From contig JAJYLL010000003.1 in the NCBI GenBank assembly GCA_021787735.1, positions 22,699 to 86,698 of the forward strand: a stretch of DNA of 64,000 nt, written 5' to 3'. The stretch comes from Acidobacteriota bacterium. Lineage in GTDB: Bacteria > Acidobacteriota > Terriglobia > UBA7540. The notes under the pieces are model-generated. The model was given only the letters and a program-made list of their open reading frames with translations, did not search any database and was not told the origin of the DNA. Positions 21,270-28,778 of the stretch are shown one piece after another. The position numbers and the translations under genes are program-made. The number at the start of each line of letters is the position of its first letter. The first letter of the stretch is position 1.

Positions 21270-22082
21270 TTAGTTGAGGTCGCGTGAAAACATCAGCTTG
21301 AAGGTCAATTTGTCGGCCCCGCCCGTTACGCCAACGCCCACGCCCGCTTCGATGTCCACAATCTTGCTGTAGTGGTCCATCACCGCCCAGATCTCGTGGA
21401 ACTGATTGTTCGTGGCGTAAAAGCCGCGAAGAGGGCCGTCATCGGAGTACTCCTCGCCTGCGGCAGCCCATCGGTGATTGAAATTGTAGGCGATGCGCCC
21501 CGCAGGAACGAACTCCAAACCTCCAAGCCCGCCGGTGTAATCCGTATCAAAAATCGGATTGTAAATCAGGTCCCATTTGTGTAAGTGCACGCCCATAATT
21601 CCACGCACTTCAGAGGAGACGGTGTGCGACTCCCAATACGAGTAGTTGACACTAAACTCAAAGTTGATCCCGTAGAAGTACTTGTGCTGGTCCGCGTGCG
21701 GCCTCACGAACAGTTCGCGGATCTTAAAGCCGTCAATCGACCCGCCGCGGCCCTTCGAGTAGGCCGTAAATATGGGCAGATAGAGGCCCTGCTCGAACCA
21801 CGGCCTCACACCATAGGCCCATTCCACTCCGCCGTTAACCGAATTGTCGGGAATGATTCCTCCGGGGAAAGCAGGGTTCTTTCGCCCGATCGGCGTATAG
21901 TTGCTGTGCAACGTCACATTGTAAATCCCTTGTGGCGCAATCGAAGCGTCGTAGACCTGAATTTCGTCAGTCTGTGCCTGCAACGCAAGCGGCGCCACGA
22001 TCAACAGAACGGCAATCGCCGCGAACGCACGCGCGAACAGTTTGAAAAATTGTCTTTGCCGGTGCCCCATAAATGAATACAC
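21270..22082 (-). CDS. outer-membrane beta-barrel transporter-like protein (MetA-pathway/phenol-degradation-like family)
   Basis: Signal peptide ending ALQAQ, then TDEIQVYDASI. Alternating amphipathic strands and a terminal aromatic-rich pattern ending LMFSRDLN. The family call is by resemblance only. Confidence 0.6.
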   Translation of the reverse strand: MYSFMGHRQRQFFKLFARAFAAIAVLLIVAPLALQAQTDEIQVYDASIAPQGIYNVTLHSNYTPIGRKNPAFPGGIIPDNSVNGGVEWAYGVRPWFEQGLYLPIFTAYSKGRGGSIDGFKIRELFVRPHADQHKYFYGINFEFSVNYSYWESHTVSSEVRGIMGVHLHKWDLIYNPIFDTDYTGGLGGLEFVPAGRIAYNFNHRWAAAGEEYSDDGPLRGFYATNNQFHEIWAVMDHYSKIVDIEAGVGVGVTGGADKLTFKLMFSRDLN

Positions 22083-22207: not shown

Positions 22208-23926
22208 TTACTGTTCTTCCGCCCCAAAATACGGTGCGGGTTCGGGGATGGCGGCGCCGTCTTTGCGGGGAGACGACGCGCCATAATTGACACCGGTCAC
22301 GGAATTGTGCAGGACGGCCTGGCCACCGCCCATCGCAGAAGAGTAGGCGCCGCGCATGATGAGCACGTGCCCTTTCTGTTCCAGGCCCTGATAGATGAAC
22401 GGGGGGAAGCGGTCTTCGATCATAAAATCGCAGCCGCCCCAATCCAGCTTGGTAAATCGCGGAGCTTCCAGCGCCGCCTGGATGTTCATGCCGTAGTCCA
22501 CAATGTCCGACACAAACTGCGCGTGCGCCTGCGGCTGGTTGTATCCGCCCATGATGCCGAAGCCGATGTGGATGTCGCCCTTTTCCATGAAGGCGGGAAT
22601 GATGGTGTGGTAGGGGCGCTTGTGCGGCTCGAGTTCGTCGGGGTGCCCCGCCTGCAGCACGAACATGCCGCCGCGGTTCTGCAGCAGGATGCCGTAATTG
22701 TCGGTCACCACGCCGGAACCGAAGCCCGCCGAGAGGCTCTGGATCAGTGAGACGATATTGCCATCCTTGTCCACCACGGAAAGATAAATCGTGTCATTTG
22801 ATGCGTGTGGAGGGTTGCCCGGCGGCTGGTCGCAGTGCGTATGGTTCATGTCAATCAACGCAGCGCGCTGGGCGGCGTATTCCTTGGAGATCAGGCCCTC
22901 CGTCGGGATCTTGGAAAACTTGGGGTCGCCCACGTAGCGCCGCAGATCGGCATAAGCCAACCGCTGAGCCTCCATCTTGACGTGCAGCCCGTCCACGCTG
23001 AAGAATCCCCATTCCGGCAGCGGGTACCGCTCCATAATGTTCAGCATCTCCAGCGCCGCCAGGCCCTGCCCATTCGGCGGCAGCTCGTAGACTTTCCAGC
23101 CGCGATAGGTGGTTGAAATCGGATCGACCCATTGTGCCTGGTACTGGCTGAGGTCTGAGAGCGACATCACACCGCCCAACTCGTCAACGGACTTCACAAT
23201 ATCCTGCGCAATGGGGCCGCGGTAAAAGGCATCCTCGCCATCCTTGGCGATCAACTCCAGGGCGCGCGCGTATTCAGGGTTGGTAAAAACCTGTCCCACC
23301 TTCGGCGGCTGTCCGCCGGGCAGGTAAATGCGCCGCGCGTTGTCGTTCTTTTCCAGCAGCGACTGCCCGTGCCGCCAGTAAGCGTCAATAAACTCGGTGA
23401 CGGGATATCCATGCTGCGCGAAATAGATCGCCGGCTCAAAGAGTTCCGCCCACGGCAGGTGCCCGTACTTCGCGTACATCTTGGCCCAGCCGTCCACGCA
23501 GCCCGGCACCGTGATGCTGAAGACGCCGCTCTGCGGCATGTGCGTGTAGCCTTTTTGCTTCAGGAAATCGACCGTCAGCTTTTCCGGCGCCCAGCCGCTG
23601 GCGTTCATTCCGGCCAGCTTGCCGGTCTTGGCGTCATAGCGGATGGCGAACAGGTCGCCACCGATGCCGCTGTTCATCGGCTCAACCACGCCCATTGCCG
23701 CGTCAGCAGCAATCGCCGCGTCAACCGCCGAGCCGCCGCGCGCCAGGATCTGCGCGCCGGCCTGGGCAGCCAGCGTCTGGCTGGTGGCAACAATGCCCAG
23801 CTGCGTGATCGTCATCGATCGCGCCTGGCTGCGGTCCAGGTGGCTGGTGTAATTCTGTGCATAAGTTGGCATGGCGATTACGATTATCGCCATTAAAGTG
23901 AATTGAAGCAATGTCAGTTTTCGCAT
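22208..23926 (-). CDS. ggt: gamma-glutamyltransferase
   Basis: Signal peptide. GGSAVDAAIA, GIGGD.F, autoprocessing site NDTIYLSVVDKDGN, and GGYNQPQ. Confidence 0.93.
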   Translation of the reverse strand: MRKLTLLQFTLMAIIVIAMPTYAQNYTSHLDRSQARSMTITQLGIVATSQTLAAQAGAQILARGGSAVDAAIAADAAMGVVEPMNSGIGGDLFAIRYDAKTGKLAGMNASGWAPEKLTVDFLKQKGYTHMPQSGVFSITVPGCVDGWAKMYAKYGHLPWAELFEPAIYFAQHGYPVTEFIDAYWRHGQSLLEKNDNARRIYLPGGQPPKVGQVFTNPEYARALELIAKDGEDAFYRGPIAQDIVKSVDELGGVMSLSDLSQYQAQWVDPISTTYRGWKVYELPPNGQGLAALEMLNIMERYPLPEWGFFSVDGLHVKMEAQRLAYADLRRYVGDPKFSKIPTEGLISKEYAAQRAALIDMNHTHCDQPPGNPPHASNDTIYLSVVDKDGNIVSLIQSLSAGFGSGVVTDNYGILLQNRGGMFVLQAGHPDELEPHKRPYHTIIPAFMEKGDIHIGFGIMGGYNQPQAHAQFVSDIVDYGMNIQAALEAPRFTKLDWGGCDFMIEDRFPPFIYQGLEQKGHVLIMRGAYSSAMGGGQAVLHNSVTGVNYGASSPRKDGAAIPEPAPYFGAEEQ

Positions 23927-24025
23927 GATAGCCCCGTCAATCCGTGAGATTTAAGAAAATGGAAGAGTACCACTTTGAAGGATGAAGTGGGAAGGATGAA
24001 GTTCGAAAACACCTGTGACGAGTGG

Positions 24026-24060
24026 GAATTACGAATTACAAGTTACAAATTACGTACTAC
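24026..24060. repeat. five tandem heptads (GAATTAC GAATTAC AAGTTAC AAATTAC GTACTAC)
   Basis: Read directly in the AT-rich ggt/M23 divergent spacer. The same spacer has GAAGGATGAAGT twice (23977-23988, 23991-24002). Confidence 0.7.
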
Positions 24061-24241
24061 CTGTTCTGAATTTTACGTCATGGTCTATGAAGGCTGATCG
24101 TTTACATCTGAAGGCCGACTGCTAATGAAGTCCCGGAAGGGGGGGCGGAAGATTTTAGCCCATGGCGTGAGCCATGGGAAAAGGGCCCACCATCCCACGC
24201 CAAAGCCCCGAAGGGGCGAAAGAAAGTTTTCGTTCTGACGA

Positions 24242-25180
24242 GTGCAGGGTTCGACAGTAGCCAACCAACGCGTGTCGAAATACCGAGTCACGAACCCCAG
24301 CACCTACACCAACACCAGCGCGGATGGGACCTACATCTACACCTCCGTGACGGTTGACGGATATACGAGCGGGACGTGCCCGACTCAGCCCGCCTACCTT
24401 GCCAACGAATGCCACAGCACCACGCACACGCCCAAGCTGTACAATGTGATTGGGGGAACCGGTGGTTGGGTGACTGGAGGGGCCGCGTACTGGAGCAGCT
24501 ACCTTTCGGACACGAACAGCCAGCAGATCGCCGTGACGCCTGGCAACGAGTACACCTTCTCATGGGATTGCGAGGTAATATGTAGCTTCGTTGGCGGAGC
24601 GATCTACTCGCAGGGAGGAAGCGGCAACGAGTTCGCACAGACGCCGATCCAACACACTTACACCGTCAACCCACTTGGCTCGATTCCCTGCTGGATATCA
24701 AACTTCTTCGACTGGTTGCAGGGCGGTAAGCCGCATGAGGCGGAGGACGTTGACGAGAACGGATGCGGGAATGGCTGCATGCCGGAAAAGGGCACGGTCC
24801 TGCCATACGGAACTCCTGTGTATGCGATGGAGGCTGGAACGGTTGTTAACGAGCACTCCGACCGGGGGCCGGCATCCTCGCCTTACCCGCAATGTGTCGG
24901 AGCTCCGGGCAACGACGTCGTCATCAAGGGGTCGGACGGATACCTGACAATCTACTACCACGTGACTCCTTATCTCGCGATTGGAGCTCCCGTCCTCCAA
25001 GGGCAGGAGATAGGCGTGACGGACAATTCGGGCTGCCAATCGGCGGGCCACGTCCACATCCAGCGAGACGATCCAAATGGCAAGCCAGTGAATTTCGACA
25101 TTACTCAATGTATTGACGACCAACCGATATCTGGCTTTTCTGATGGCGTCATCGGTTGCGGCGACGCTGGAAGCCCATGA
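24242..25180 (+). CDS. M23 (LytM-type) metallopeptidase-domain protein; Cys-rich; no signal peptide; unrecognised N-terminal half
   Basis: C-terminal half fits M23: GTPVYAMEAGTVV....GNDVVIKGSDGYLTIYYHV.....G..V.QGQEIGVTDNSG.QSAGHVHIQ. Candidate HxxxD is HEAED at 24734-24748. GTG is the only start after an in-frame TGA at 24236. There are 12 Cys. Confidence 0.7.
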   Translation: MQGSTVANQRVSKYRVTNPSTYTNTSADGTYIYTSVTVDGYTSGTCPTQPAYLANECHSTTHTPKLYNVIGGTGGWVTGGAAYWSSYLSDTNSQQIAVTPGNEYTFSWDCEVICSFVGGAIYSQGGSGNEFAQTPIQHTYTVNPLGSIPCWISNFFDWLQGGKPHEAEDVDENGCGNGCMPEKGTVLPYGTPVYAMEAGTVVNEHSDRGPASSPYPQCVGAPGNDVVIKGSDGYLTIYYHVTPYLAIGAPVLQGQEIGVTDNSGCQSAGHVHIQRDDPNGKPVNFDITQCIDDQPISGFSDGVIGCGDAGSP

Positions 25181-26280
25181 GGCAGGACTTGAGCAGCGAC
25201 CAAACTCCTTGCAGCGACAAAGTTCCGGGTCGAGGTTTCTTCATCCGTGGGTGCATGTTTCTCGCGGTTGCTGTAGTGCTCGGGCTCGCGTCGGCCTGCT
25301 CTCCTGCCCGGAAGCCTAGCATTGTTGCCCTTTCACACCGGGTCTTCAGAGTGAGTTCTTCGGGTCGGATTCGCCCGTTTCCCTACACCTTTCCACGTGC
25401 ATCTGAGTCAAGCGTTCAGGGCTCGACGGAGCCCCTGCCCTCGCCTGATGGGCGCTGGATCGCATTCGGCGACCCAACCGGAGACTACGACGCCCACCTA
25501 CTCGACGTAACCACCCTCCGCCAGCACCGAATAACTTGGTTCGGCCGAGCGCCTCGTAAGGGCTATACGTACGCGGTAGTACAGATCGCCGGATGGTCGC
25601 CGGATAGCCGCCAACTTCTGCTCGCGGTGGTTCCCGGATACTTCATGCCATCTGAGCAGGGCGACCGGCACCCCCAGGCGTCGTACGGCACTTACATCTA
25701 CAACGTTGAGAACGGAACGATTCGCCGACTTCCGGTGCCTGCCGCCGGATTAGATCTTGTCGGTTGGGCGCCCGACGGGCGGATTTTCGCCAATGTCTTC
25801 GCCCGCCCTATTTGGCAGGACGGGCGCTTCATGGTTCTTGGCCCAAACGGTGACGACGGGAAGCAGGTCGGCGTGCCCCTGGTTCAACCGCGCTTGAGCC
25901 TCGATGGAAGGTGGCTAGTAGGCTTCGTCCGGGGCGCTGGTCCGGGTGCGGCCCGGATCGTCAAGGTCGACTCGGCGACGATGGCAACGACGCCGCTGGT
26001 AACGCTTGATTCGTGGCCATTAAACTCGTGCGCCACCCTTTCCCCCGACGACAGAATGGTCGCGTACAAGCTTGAGAAACCCCACAAGGGCCTCTATTAC
26101 AGCGCGAAAGAGGACCTTTTCGTGGGCGACCGGAAAATTTATGCGTGCGCCGGAAGGATCGACTATGTGTGGGTGGACAACCGGGAAATTGCCTTGACGT
26201 GCCAGAGCGAAGCGTTAGTGGTCGATTCGAGTAGTGGAAAGATTGTCAGCCTCCTCAAACCGAGCCACAATCCCAGGTAG
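25177..26280 (+). CDS. PD40/TolB-like beta-propeller protein, paralog 1 (signal-anchor or lipoprotein-like N-terminus)
   Basis: ATG 25177 overlaps the M23 stop as ATGA. Hydrophobic segment MFLAVAVVLGLASAC, then PD40-type repeats (LPSPDGRWIAFGD, WSPDSRQLLL, LSLDGRWLVG, LSPDDRMVAYK). Alternative starts at 25156 and 25255. Confidence 0.7.
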   Translation: MRQDLSSDQTPCSDKVPGRGFFIRGCMFLAVAVVLGLASACSPARKPSIVALSHRVFRVSSSGRIRPFPYTFPRASESSVQGSTEPLPSPDGRWIAFGDPTGDYDAHLLDVTTLRQHRITWFGRAPRKGYTYAVVQIAGWSPDSRQLLLAVVPGYFMPSEQGDRHPQASYGTYIYNVENGTIRRLPVPAAGLDLVGWAPDGRIFANVFARPIWQDGRFMVLGPNGDDGKQVGVPLVQPRLSLDGRWLVGFVRGAGPGAARIVKVDSATMATTPLVTLDSWPLNSCATLSPDDRMVAYKLEKPHKGLYYSAKEDLFVGDRKIYACAGRIDYVWVDNREIALTCQSEALVVDSSSGKIVSLLKPSHNPR

Positions 26281-26423
26281 CTCCCGCGGGTTCTATAAAA
26301 CGGGATGTCAAGTAAAAACCCTTCAGCCCCTTCCGGGGGATGAGAGTGCGGGGGTATTTTAGCCGGAGCGTCGGCCCTTGCTCCCTGGTGCGTCGCAGGT
26401 GCAGGGCAAGGGGGAATTCCCGC

Positions 26424-27476
26424 GTGGATAAGAAGCTCGCAGTCGGAACCCTGCTCGCGATCGGGTTGCTTCTGCCCGGACCGCCCAAGGCTGTGCCACA
26501 ACTTGTTGTTCTTGCGAGGCGGGTGTGGGAGGTTAGTCCCCGGGGTAGTATTGCCCCGTTTCCCCTCTTGTATCCCCCAGGCTACGACAGCGAAGTGCAA
26601 GGTGCGACCGTCCCCCTGCCTTCGCCGGACGGGCGGTGGATTGCCTTCGGCGACTTCGGTGACGACTATGATATACATCTGCTCGATGTTGGGTTGGACC
26701 GAGAACGGCGGATAACCAGGTTCGGCCGGCCGCCGGGAAGGGGGCATACATGGGTCGCTGCCCTGATCGACGGCTGGTCGGCCGATAGCCGGATGCTTCT
26801 TGTCTACGTAACTCACGGCGAAACAATCGCTGAGGAGGGCATGGGAGCCGTTCCCAAGGCCCCATACGGATTCTACGTCTACGATCCCGCGACCAGCACG
26901 ACGAAGCCGCTTACGTTGCCGAAGGAATTCGAGTTCATTGCTTGGCTTCGAGATGGGCGATTCGTTGGTGTCCTCCCTGGGCGACTTCCGCGCGACGACA
27001 AGCTGGTTATACTCCGACCAGGCGAGGCGCGGGAAACCCGTATCAGAGGGGTATTCAGTTCCAGCGCGCAGGTGAGTACCGACGGCAAATGGCTTGTGGG
27101 GCTACACACCGAGAATGGCCGGATACCCGGAAAAGGGACGGCGCAGATCGTCAAAGTCAACTTGGCAACTATGGCGGTTACGCCGCTGGTAAATCTGACT
27201 TCGTGGTCAGGAAACGAGCGGCCTGCCCTCTCACCTGACGACAAGCACGTCGCGTACAAACGCGAGAAGCAGAAGCATCCACTGTACTACACCCCGCAGG
27301 AGAGCCTCTTCGTGGACGGACGTCTAATCTATTCCTGTCCCGGACCGATTGATTTCAAGTGGGTGAATGACCGAATGATCGCCGTCGCCTGCCAAGAGTC
27401 GGTGCTGGTTCTCAACTCGGCCACCGGAAAGATCCTGAGCCGGCACCAGCTCACGCCTGGCGGCACAAGTCGTTGA
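26424..27476 (+). CDS. PD40/TolB-like beta-propeller protein, paralog 2
   Basis: Collinear with paralog 1 (VQGATVPLPSPDGRWIAFGD, IVKVNLATMAVTPLV, LSPDDKHVAYK). GTG 26424 preceded by AAGGGGGA, with signal-anchor LAVGTLLAIGLLL. The track start 26340 would add an Arg/Cys-rich, non-protein-like leader. Confidence 0.7.
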   Translation: MDKKLAVGTLLAIGLLLPGPPKAVPQLVVLARRVWEVSPRGSIAPFPLLYPPGYDSEVQGATVPLPSPDGRWIAFGDFGDDYDIHLLDVGLDRERRITRFGRPPGRGHTWVAALIDGWSADSRMLLVYVTHGETIAEEGMGAVPKAPYGFYVYDPATSTTKPLTLPKEFEFIAWLRDGRFVGVLPGRLPRDDKLVILRPGEARETRIRGVFSSSAQVSTDGKWLVGLHTENGRIPGKGTAQIVKVNLATMAVTPLVNLTSWSGNERPALSPDDKHVAYKREKQKHPLYYTPQESLFVDGRLIYSCPGPIDFKWVNDRMIAVACQESVLVLNSATGKILSRHQLTPGGTSR

Positions 27477-27692: not shown

Positions 27693-28778
27693 GTGACTTC
27701 TTCTAAGCCGAACCAGAGCCTGACGCCTGTGGCGTTGCTCGCTGCCTGGGGCAGGGTGCTCAGTGGCAGAGTTCCGATGCTGTCGATCGAAATCACCAGG
27801 GAGTGCCCCCTAAGCTGCCCCGGATGTTACGCCTACGGAGACGCGCACCTGGGCGGCGGAATCACCCTGAGTGAATTGAGCGACCAACGGGGGGACGAAC
27901 TTGTGCAGGGCATTTTGGGGATTGTGCGCCGGCACAAGCCGCTTCACGTTTCTCTGGTGGGCGGGGAGCCGATGGTCCGGCATCGCGAGTTGAGCAGAAT
28001 TCTTCCGGTGCTCAGCGAGATGGGCGTGTTTACGCTGGTGGTGACGAGCGGCATTATTCCTATTCCCATGGAGTGGATGAAATTCCCCCGGCTCAGGGTT
28101 GCGGTTTCAGTGGACGGCCTGCCCGAACACCACGACATCCGGAGGAAACCGGCGACTTACGAGCGCATCCTGGAAAATGTGGAAGGCCGCGAGTTCAACG
28201 TTCACTGGGTGATCACGCGCCCGATGATCGAGCGCGACGGCTACCTGGAAGATTATGTGAAGTTCTGGAGCGCGCGTTCTGAAGTGAATCGCATCTGGGT
28301 AAGTGTTTTCACTCCACAGATGGGGGAACAAAGTCCTGAAGTTCTGACGGCGGCGGACCGCGCGGCCCTGGCCAGGCAATTGCCCGCTTTGGCGAAGCGT
28401 TACCCGAAACTTCTATTCACCCAAGGCCTGGCCCAGGCCGTTCTGCATCCACCGGAAAGTCCGCGTGATTGCGTTTTCGCAAAGATGTCGGCCAACTATT
28501 CAGCAGACCTTGAAACCCGTGTGGAACCTTGCGTTTTTGGCGGGACGCCCGATTGTTCCCAGTGCGGTTGCGCCATCAGCAGCGGCTTGCACTCAGTCAG
28601 GGCAATCAAAGTGGCCGGCCCGGTAAAGATCGACCACTTCATCACAGCTTCTGTAAATATCGGCCGCATGATGAGCCGGCTTCGGTCACGGGCGGCCCGA
28701 CCACCACGGTGGAACCCTGCCAACCGCCCTAATGACCGCAAGGCAGCATTGACAGGCGCTGCACATGTTGATTTTTGA
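27693..28778 (+). CDS. radical SAM protein, distantly HpnH-like architecture
   Basis: CxxxCxxC (ITRECPLSCPGCYAY), GGEPMVRH, VSVDGLPEHHD and a C-terminal Cys cluster CVFGGTPDCSQCGCAISSG. Layout parallels the adenosyl-hopene transferase family, but the sequence is clearly divergent. Confidence 0.85.
   Translation: MTSSKPNQSLTPVALLAAWGRVLSGRVPMLSIEITRECPLSCPGCYAYGDAHLGGGITLSELSDQRGDELVQGILGIVRRHKPLHVSLVGGEPMVRHRELSRILPVLSEMGVFTLVVTSGIIPIPMEWMKFPRLRVAVSVDGLPEHHDIRRKPATYERILENVEGREFNVHWVITRPMIERDGYLEDYVKFWSARSEVNRIWVSVFTPQMGEQSPEVLTAADRAALARQLPALAKRYPKLLFTQGLAQAVLHPPESPRDCVFAKMSANYSADLETRVEPCVFGGTPDCSQCGCAISSGLHSVRAIKVAGPVKIDHFITASVNIGRMMSRLRSRAARPPRWNPANRPNDRKAALTGAAHVDF

Follow-up and report, generated by a model that had tools for sequence, protein, structure and literature searches.

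What relationship joins a peptidoglycan hydrolase gene to the two propeller genes that follow it? The question is raised by a block of three genes in a 64,000-nucleotide (nt) stretch of an Acidobacteriota genome (Terriglobia; contig JAJYLL010000003.1, positions 22,699 to 86,698), hereafter the window, where a gene for a metallopeptidase of family M23 precedes two tandem genes, paralogs a and b, for PD40 propeller proteins. Acidobacteria are abundant in soil, and little is known of their competition or of the control of their cell-wall hydrolases. An earlier note, drawn from the bare sequence, had proposed either a hydrolase with cognate inhibitors, in the manner of effector and immunity proteins, or an accessory envelope-remodelling module. 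We compared the block with its homologues, mapping gene cassettes by genomic context and tblastn; L and P numbers designate the loci and proteins of this analysis. The block belongs, in rearranged form, to a rare cassette family of soil Terriglobia (Acidobacteriota) that has not been described before. We favour tentatively, at slightly less than an even chance, its interpretation as a polymorphic-effector/immunity-like module, represented here by the remnant of a non-exported effector and by two retained inhibitor-like propellers.

An M23 peptidase with an intact active site and no signal peptide

The M23 gene (24242-25180, plus strand) encodes 312 amino acids (aa) and matches the Pfam model Peptidase_M23 (PF01551) over residues 188-284 with E=8e-13 and 48.8 bits, the gathering score being 28.7. 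The HxxxD motif (H165, codon at 24734, and D169, codon at 24746), H240 (24959) and the HxH motif (H270, 25049, and H272, 25055), located by reading the sequence, are all intact, and the corresponding columns are invariant across the family alignment. A catalytically dead domain would have spoken against the earlier proposal; with its full set of motifs kept, this one may not be dead. The AlphaFold2 model of the protein has a predicted local distance difference test score (pLDDT) of 78, mostly 84-98 in the catalytic domain (residues ~135-312, 24644-25177). Foldseek matched the model to ShyA, LytM, lysostaphin, EnpA and DipM, and a profile search of the PDB with the protein returned ShyA (5e-11) and zoocin A (1e-9). 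By profile, motifs and predicted fold the window enzyme is a member of peptidase family M23, and endopeptidase activity is predicted for it. Ahead of the catalytic domain lies an all-beta domain without a Pfam model, described as a beta-sandwich and called here the N-domain (residues ~15-134, 24284-24643).

The protein carries no signal peptide. Its most hydrophobic 12-residue segment starting within the first 50 residues scores 0.44, compared with 2.5-2.9 for the two propeller paralogs, whose hydrophobic N-termini were correctly recognized in the earlier note. The start codon is a GTG, with an in-frame TGA stop just upstream and a single codon between them, and no frame of the 315-nt spacer that precedes the gene (23927-24241) encodes a hydrophobic, signal-peptide-like stretch. 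In alignments, the similarity to homologues begins only at about residue 15-17, and the full-length homologues retrieved by protein search all begin with a typical signal peptide, with the exception of P0005, which has none. The 5' end of the window M23 gene has therefore been replaced. As encoded, the enzyme would be unable to get to the periplasm, where the paralogs are predicted to sit; this copy is probably not exported, and we infer that it is non-functional.

Two old paralogs that resemble TolB in fold only

The M23 gene and paralog a (367 aa, 25177-26280, plus strand) share an ATGA overlap at 25177-25180. In AAGCCCATGAGGCAG, the M23 stop codon TGA (25178-25180) overlaps the ATG of paralog a, which begins at 25177; this coupling, pointed out in the earlier note, is read directly in the sequence and agrees with the gene call of the source contig, DAHWUB010000003.1 of the metagenome-assembled genome GCA_027331525.1, which the window matches. 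Paralog b (350 aa, 26424-27476, plus strand) follows after a spacer of 143 nt (26281-26423, GC content 0.62) that is not repeated elsewhere in the window and contains no M23 remnant (tblastn with M23 queries, E<=1e-4). A more upstream start at 26340 gives paralog b its longest open reading frame (ORF); the GTG at 26424 is favoured as the probable start by the source-contig gene call and by the homologue alignment. The two proteins are collinear and diverged, as had been described, being 46% identical over 337 aa (BLASTP, E=2e-90) and containing the identical stretches that had been quoted. At the DNA level just one stretch of 130 nt is still 72% identical between them, so the duplication is old. 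All the sequence features attributed to the block were found again at their coordinates.

Both paralogs match Pfam PD40 above its gathering score of 20.9, with 31.6 bits for a and 27 bits for b. The AlphaFold2 model of paralog a (mean pLDDT 80, predicted template-modelling score (pTM) 0.77) shows an N-terminal helix followed by an all-beta propeller. Its best structural matches in the PDB are TolB propellers (E ~3e-10, TM-score ~0.48), and propellers of S9 peptidases are likewise among the best solved matches (TM-score ~0.5, 15-17% identity). Paralog a carries a lipobox-like LASAC motif, which makes it a probable lipoprotein; paralog b has a signal-peptide-like N-terminus without the cysteine.

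TolB is itself a periplasmic PD40 beta-propeller and gives the best matches of the paralogs in the PDB by structure and by sequence, but the paralogs are not its orthologues. The TolB equivalog model TIGR02800 (cut-off 343.15) gave 24.8 bits with paralog b and no match with paralog a. The alpha/beta N-terminal domain of TolB is missing, Pfam finding only PD40 and the model running from the signal helix directly into beta-strands. No tol-pal genes adjoin the block, the neighbours being ggt, M23 and a radical SAM gene. Orthology was thus rejected on score, domain and operon context, and the likeness is one of fold only. These results do not bear out the earlier suggestion of a link to the pairing of TolB-type propellers and M23 factors in cell constriction.

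A broader form of the same idea is that the propeller (lipo)proteins act as periplasmic scaffolds or regulators of an endogenous growth or division endopeptidase. Lipoprotein adaptors control endopeptidases in the NlpI-Prc-MepS and LbcA-CtpA-MepM systems. The closest solved relative of the window M23 is the growth endopeptidase ShyA, the best structural matches of the propeller are TolB propellers, paralog a is lipoprotein-like and the genes are tightly coupled, all of which would suit such a role. We nevertheless find this explanation unlikely: the paralogs depart from TolB in each of the respects given above, the window enzyme has no export signal, and the behaviour of the enzyme family in other genomes, to which we now turn, also argues against it.

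A rare cassette family with exchangeable parts

The M23 family is very rare: 5.8 billion proteins yielded 24 members, every one of them on a soil contig of Acidobacteriota type. When metagenomes were scanned with a subfamily-specific M23 pattern, 64 loci were obtained, among which 31 (L073-L103) are clear M23-family loci; the relatives of the window proteins carry the labels Terriglobales bacterium or Acidobacteriota bacterium. In the commonest cassette, a gene that we call UP precedes the enzyme gene (signal peptide, N-domain and M23 domain), which is followed by a gene that we call DN. UP encodes a secreted, mostly helical protein of 140-226 aa without a Pfam model and overlaps the start of the enzyme gene by 4 nt. 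DN encodes a 200-235-aa secreted protein that has conserved cysteines but no relative in Pfam, NCBIfam or the PDB; it lies downstream of the enzyme gene in about 17 distinct M23 lineages. The arrangement singled out in the earlier note, a propeller gene after the M23 gene, does recur, but the usual downstream partner is the unrelated DN. The possibility that DN is a cut-down propeller was rejected (hhalign probability 0.1%, no PDB relative of DN).

The two partners follow different parts of the enzyme. UP was present in 10 of the 10 loci in which an intact N-domain gene start is visible, two of which (L012, L013) encode an N-domain protein with a non-M23 C-terminus. UP therefore goes with the N-domain, whatever the C-terminus, and DN with the M23 domain. 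M23 and DN occur together behind a bare signal peptide (L094), in an 826-aa protein (L090) and behind other long N-terminal regions (L082, L088). The window N-domain is 62-75% identical to N-domains with cysteine-rich non-M23 C-termini, versus 40-50% to the N-domains of other M23 proteins; a profile search with the N-domain added only 8 more proteins, mostly fragments. Such rarity and patchiness, together with the domain swaps, the alternative partners and the frequent truncations described below, are not typical of housekeeping genes and argue against an envelope-remodelling role.

Within the window, the N-domain and the M23 domain are joined in one protein, as judged from the alignments, but neither UP nor DN stands beside it, and no relative of either was found anywhere in the 64 kb. 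The 315-nt spacer occupies the place where homologues have the UP gene and the signal-peptide codons. A frameshifted signal peptide or UP remnant 5' of the M23 gene was considered and rejected, none being present in any frame and a tblastn search with UP being empty.

Comparable losses were observed elsewhere in the family. Enzyme genes that have no signal peptide, or that start inside the N-domain or the M23 domain, lie beside a full-length downstream gene in the window and in L097, L074/75/91/93, L076/77, L087/100 and L003, and several of these 5'-truncated M23 structures were found on independent contigs; about ten homologous lineages keep an intact signal peptide on M23. At L076 (position 3589) and L077 (position 2910), the M23 gene begins within the N-domain, about 80 nt past a gene for an 883-aa Ser/Thr kinase, and DN is 99% identical to the DN of L004, where UP and the signal peptide are kept. 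The truncation appears to have arisen recently, in a single lineage. At L003 (7642-8942), an N-terminally shortened UP has its C-terminal end in frame with the M23 ORF (P0005). P0005 has no hydrophobic signal core, and the cassette appears degraded or fused, with DN intact.

Two further N-domain loci deserve mention. At L013 (8001-11059), P0011 combines an N-domain with another C-terminal region of 290 aa; UP lies before it and three tandem paralogs after it (100, 185 and 173 aa, ~60% identical, secreted, with no firm Pfam match), making a second case of multiplied downstream genes. P0021 (175 aa), encoded outside the window, is another N-domain protein; it begins within that domain and ends in a cysteine-rich C-terminus. 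Its occurrence pattern (NCBI, Logan, ENA) resembles that of the window proteins, and the organism or community of the window may hold in P0021 a second, also truncated, N-domain gene.

Propeller genes follow M23 genes in three lineages

The earlier note had staked its proposal on the genes being found together in other genomes. An M23 gene followed by a gene of the same propeller family was indeed found, arranged as in an operon, in two further lineages, L071 and L097/L099. At L071/L072, the ATG of the propeller P0028 lies 12 nt past the M23 stop codon, with GAGGAG just before it; P0028 shares 54% identity with paralog b and 40% with paralog a, and its M23 neighbour is 50% identical to the window M23. 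At L097 and L099, two contigs of one taxon, the propeller ATG lies 52 nt past the M23 stop codon and is preceded by AGGGAGG. The cluster representative P0046 starts with a +1-frame reading of the M23 tail, and the M23-propeller junction is therefore confirmed in that lineage. In the identity matrix, paralog b is closer to P0028 (54%) than to paralog a (44%), and in the propeller tree, a rough one, b groups with P0028, while a is the faster-evolving, more diverged copy.

The propeller family itself is large. Starting from 12 proteins, an exhaustive profile search extended it to 76 clusters or more at E<=1e-30, with lengths of ~340-370 aa in almost every case. Since a hydrophobic N-terminus was found in 64 of the 69 full-length members, we regard the family as extracytoplasmic.

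Several observations weigh against an effector/immunity-like pairing of M23 and propeller. The propeller is a minority partner, found in 3 lineages versus about 17 with DN, and close propeller relatives at L067, L068/69 and L070 have no M23 neighbour. The M23 domains that precede propellers are not monophyletic in our M23 tree, a rough neighbour-joining tree with long branches. The M23 of L099 and the DN-linked P0005 are ~76% identical, so a switch of partner can come with little change in the enzyme; from this identity and the polyphyly, the sequences do not appear to support a strict one-to-one co-evolution of M23 and partner. The window M23 ORF is open across 312 codons with its motifs intact and may not be a dead remnant. 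Genomic contexts were inspected for a small part of the at least 76 propeller clusters. Some of the frameshifts and truncations in the metagenomes may be assembly or sequencing errors; in near-identical contigs some frameshifts lie at slightly different positions. Finally, we know of no route by which a Sec-exported enzyme would enter the periplasm of a rival.

Some of these points would suit an absence of any functional coupling, the M23 gene being a decaying pseudogene, the propellers independent periplasmic proteins with another ligand or effector, and their adjacency a product of island dynamics and deletions. The window M23 has neither signal peptide nor UP, frameshifts are present in the M23 genes of both L097 and L099 (that of L097 being also 5'-truncated), the M23 lineages preceding propellers are polyphyletic, propeller relatives exist without M23, and the propeller family far exceeds the M23 family in size. 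This explanation has to account, however, for three independent lineages with the same order and orientation and a tight spacing, two of them with good ribosome-binding sites. None of the DN-linked loci contains, farther downstream, a propeller gene that could have come to lie beside M23 through a deletion. Around generic PD40 genes, 53 control loci (673 kb) contained no relative of the M23 family, of UP or of DN; these loci came from a scan of species representatives with the propeller alignment, in which the matches listed were all generic PD40 (25-37% identity over ~120 aa). The L067 propeller, P0030, also bears an M23-type tail that points to a past M23 neighbour. We consider fortuitous adjacency improbable.

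The order at L067 is a secreted protein, a HEAT_2 protein and the propeller. P0030 (1345-2496 of this locus) ends with TPSTKLSDGLVDDSVPDDL, which is clearly the acidic C-terminal tail (DGLVDDxVP) of the M23 family, as exemplified by TPTSKFSDDLVADDDPDVP in P0017. The window copy of this tail, SGFSDGVIGCGDAGSP, is degenerate, and in the AlphaFold2 model of the M23 protein the tail is disordered. The tail of P0030 could be the trace of an earlier fusion of two genes, or else a mobile signal at the C-terminus. At L097 (1844-4212), the propeller gene is directly followed by genes for a secreted protein with Big_2 and Peptidase_M15_3 domains (455 aa) and for a HEAT_2 protein (343 aa), which make up a second candidate hydrolase/immunity pair within this small island. 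Proteins with HEAT repeats form one of the classes of immunity proteins already described (PMC3482391).

A proposed effector/immunity-like logic

We favour an effector/immunity-like logic because of the recurrent linkage, the swapped domains, the alternative partners and the truncated enzyme genes beside intact downstream genes. A shared N-terminal part with variable C-termini, and 5'-truncated modules in at least five lineages, were observed. The downstream genes vary with the C-terminal domain and multiply in tandem, three at L013 and two propellers here, which is a further sign of such logic. Secreted propellers are encoded directly downstream on the same strand and are predicted in the compartment in which the enzyme would act, in the window as well as at L071 and L097; an export signal, expected of an effector, is absent from the window M23. 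The first proposal of the earlier note therefore survives in modified form: it fits the comparative evidence (linkage, domain swaps, truncations) better than its rivals, but the partner is usually DN and the M23 protein of the window has no export signal.

The mechanism that we propose has at its core a Sec-exported M23 peptidoglycan endopeptidase with an intact catalytic site. DN, or in three lineages including the window the PD40/TolB-like propeller of about 350 aa that takes its place, would bind the M23 domain in the periplasm and neutralize it, shielding the cell's own peptidoglycan from its own enzyme in transit or from the enzyme released by relatives. UP would work with the N-domain, either as a chaperone, perhaps, or in delivery. 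Here the signal peptide and UP have been lost, leaving an enzyme that is probably not exported, and the two diverged propellers would survive as orphans, each protecting with a specificity of its own. Physical binding, inhibition and an antagonistic use of the enzyme are thus what we infer for the cassette.

A different role at the same position is conceivable, in which a propeller lipoprotein, as an alternative to DN, would assist the secreted endopeptidase at the outer membrane, in its release, folding or activation, instead of inhibiting it. The propeller gene does occupy the position of DN directly after the enzyme gene, paralog a has a lipoprotein signal, and beta-propellers are generic platforms for binding proteins and peptides. 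A helper would hardly be expected to stay intact and duplicated beside enzyme genes without an export signal, and a review of M23 enzymes gives pro-peptides, occluding domains and FemABX-type immunity, with no such helper (PMC9662197). We regard this role as very unlikely.

Comparison with known systems

A comparable layout among described systems is that of Tse1-Tsi1 of Pseudomonas aeruginosa, in which the gene of a hydrolase is followed in one operon by that of a periplasmic, all-beta, propeller-like protein (PMC3391265). Tsi1 acts in the periplasm as the immunity protein against Tse1, a peptidoglycan amidase, has a partial beta-propeller fold like the propellers of DPP-IV and blocks the active site of Tse1 (PMC3391265); for the window propellers, inhibition is a conjecture. 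The differences are also clear. Tse1 is an amidase of the NlpC/P60 type and depends on a type VI system for its delivery, whereas the window enzyme belongs to M23 and its homologues carry Sec signal peptides; no type VI genes were found among the annotated genes within ~10 kb on either side of the window M23. Tsi1 is a small partial propeller of three sheets, whereas the window partner is a full PD40 propeller of ~350 aa.

The cassettes share with polymorphic toxins (Zhang et al. 2012, PMC3482391) constant N-terminal parts, variable C-terminal domains and a C-terminal domain that travels with the downstream gene, as well as truncated toxin genes beside intact downstream genes, tandem downstream paralogs and neighbours with HEAT repeats. 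Unlike polymorphic toxins, the cassette proteins are short (~300 aa), possess only a signal peptide, without RHS or filamentous repeats or dedicated secretion domains, and have a peptidoglycan endopeptidase as their putative toxin domain.

Lysostaphin with Lif and zoocin A with Zif likewise combine a secreted M23 endopeptidase directed against other bacteria with a linked gene for self-protection (PMC9662197), and the catalytic domain of zoocin A is among the best sequence matches of the window M23. In these systems, however, immunity is provided by cytoplasmic FemABX-like enzymes that alter the cross-bridge rather than by periplasmic binders, and the producers are Gram-positive. More generally, self-protection from M23 lysins relies on FemABX-type enzymes, and latency on pro-regions or occluding domains (PMC9662197). 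ShyA, Csd3 and latent LytM resemble the window enzyme in having an N-terminal domain before the catalytic M23 domain (PMC9662197), ShyA being the best PDB match both by sequence and by fold. The window N-domain, in contrast, could not be related to theirs by sequence and also occurs in proteins without an M23 domain, and those enzymes are conserved housekeeping or cell-shape genes kept latent by the N-terminal domain or pro-region.

A more ambitious generalization is that Terriglobia encode an undescribed class of short, Sec-dependent, polymorphic peptidoglycan-hydrolase effectors, combining N-domain or other leaders with M23 or other C-termini and having UP as a partner. Self-protection would then be provided by two unrelated families of periplasmic inhibitors, one of them a full PD40 propeller lipoprotein, and the window would represent an orphan-immunity end state with a duplicated propeller. 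Taken as a whole, this is rather unlikely. If true, it would bring two firsts, an immunity protein that is a complete beta-propeller and a protein that inhibits an M23 enzyme in the periplasm; neither a periplasmic protein inhibitor of M23 nor UP, DN or the N-domain was found described in Pfam, NCBIfam, the PDB or the literature searched. Were the propellers or DN to inhibit M23, they would form a new class of protein inhibitors for enzymes of interest as antibacterial lysins and, in the case of the propellers, add the beta-propeller fold to the repertoire of immunity proteins. Should the propellers have no inhibitory effect on M23, the block comes down to an ordinary decaying hydrolase gene beside two periplasmic propellers. 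The cassette family, which contains three domains without a Pfam model (UP, the N-domain and DN), is a small system in which effector/immunity modularity can be studied in the absence of a dedicated secretion machine.

Flanking DNA and composition of the block

The gene map of the window places ggt (22208-23926, minus strand) on one side of the block and the radical SAM gene (27693-28778, plus strand) on the other, as had been reported. The spacer between ggt and M23 (23927-24241) has a GC content of 48%, falling to 41% in its first 174 nt (23927-24100), versus 58% for the window. Its earlier description as a repeat-rich AT spacer holds for the AT-richness of these 174 nt; the repeats are only short direct repeats of 14-15 nt. 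Its use as an argument for accessory DNA is not upheld by composition, since the GC and the third-position GC (GC3) of the three block genes (0.67-0.70) equal those of the neighbouring genes. The block thus carries no foreign mark in composition, and a recent horizontal transfer was ruled out on this basis, GC3 being the same as that of the neighbours. A repeated mobile element in the spacers was also ruled out, a blastn comparison of the three spacers with the window giving no second copy, and the upstream spacer had zero matches in the plasmid collection.

The same upstream spacer, which replaces the 5' end of the M23 cassette, contains the sole Rfam match of the 64-kb window, an Acido-Lenti-1 RNA motif (RF01687) at 24129-24178 on the minus strand, with 38.4 bits for a gathering score of 37. 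A tie between this motif and the cassette was ruled out, the motif being missing from 18 related loci. On the far side of ggt, a secreted protein of 270 aa that matches no Pfam or NCBIfam model is encoded at 21270-22082 (minus strand), between a sulfatase-domain gene and ggt.

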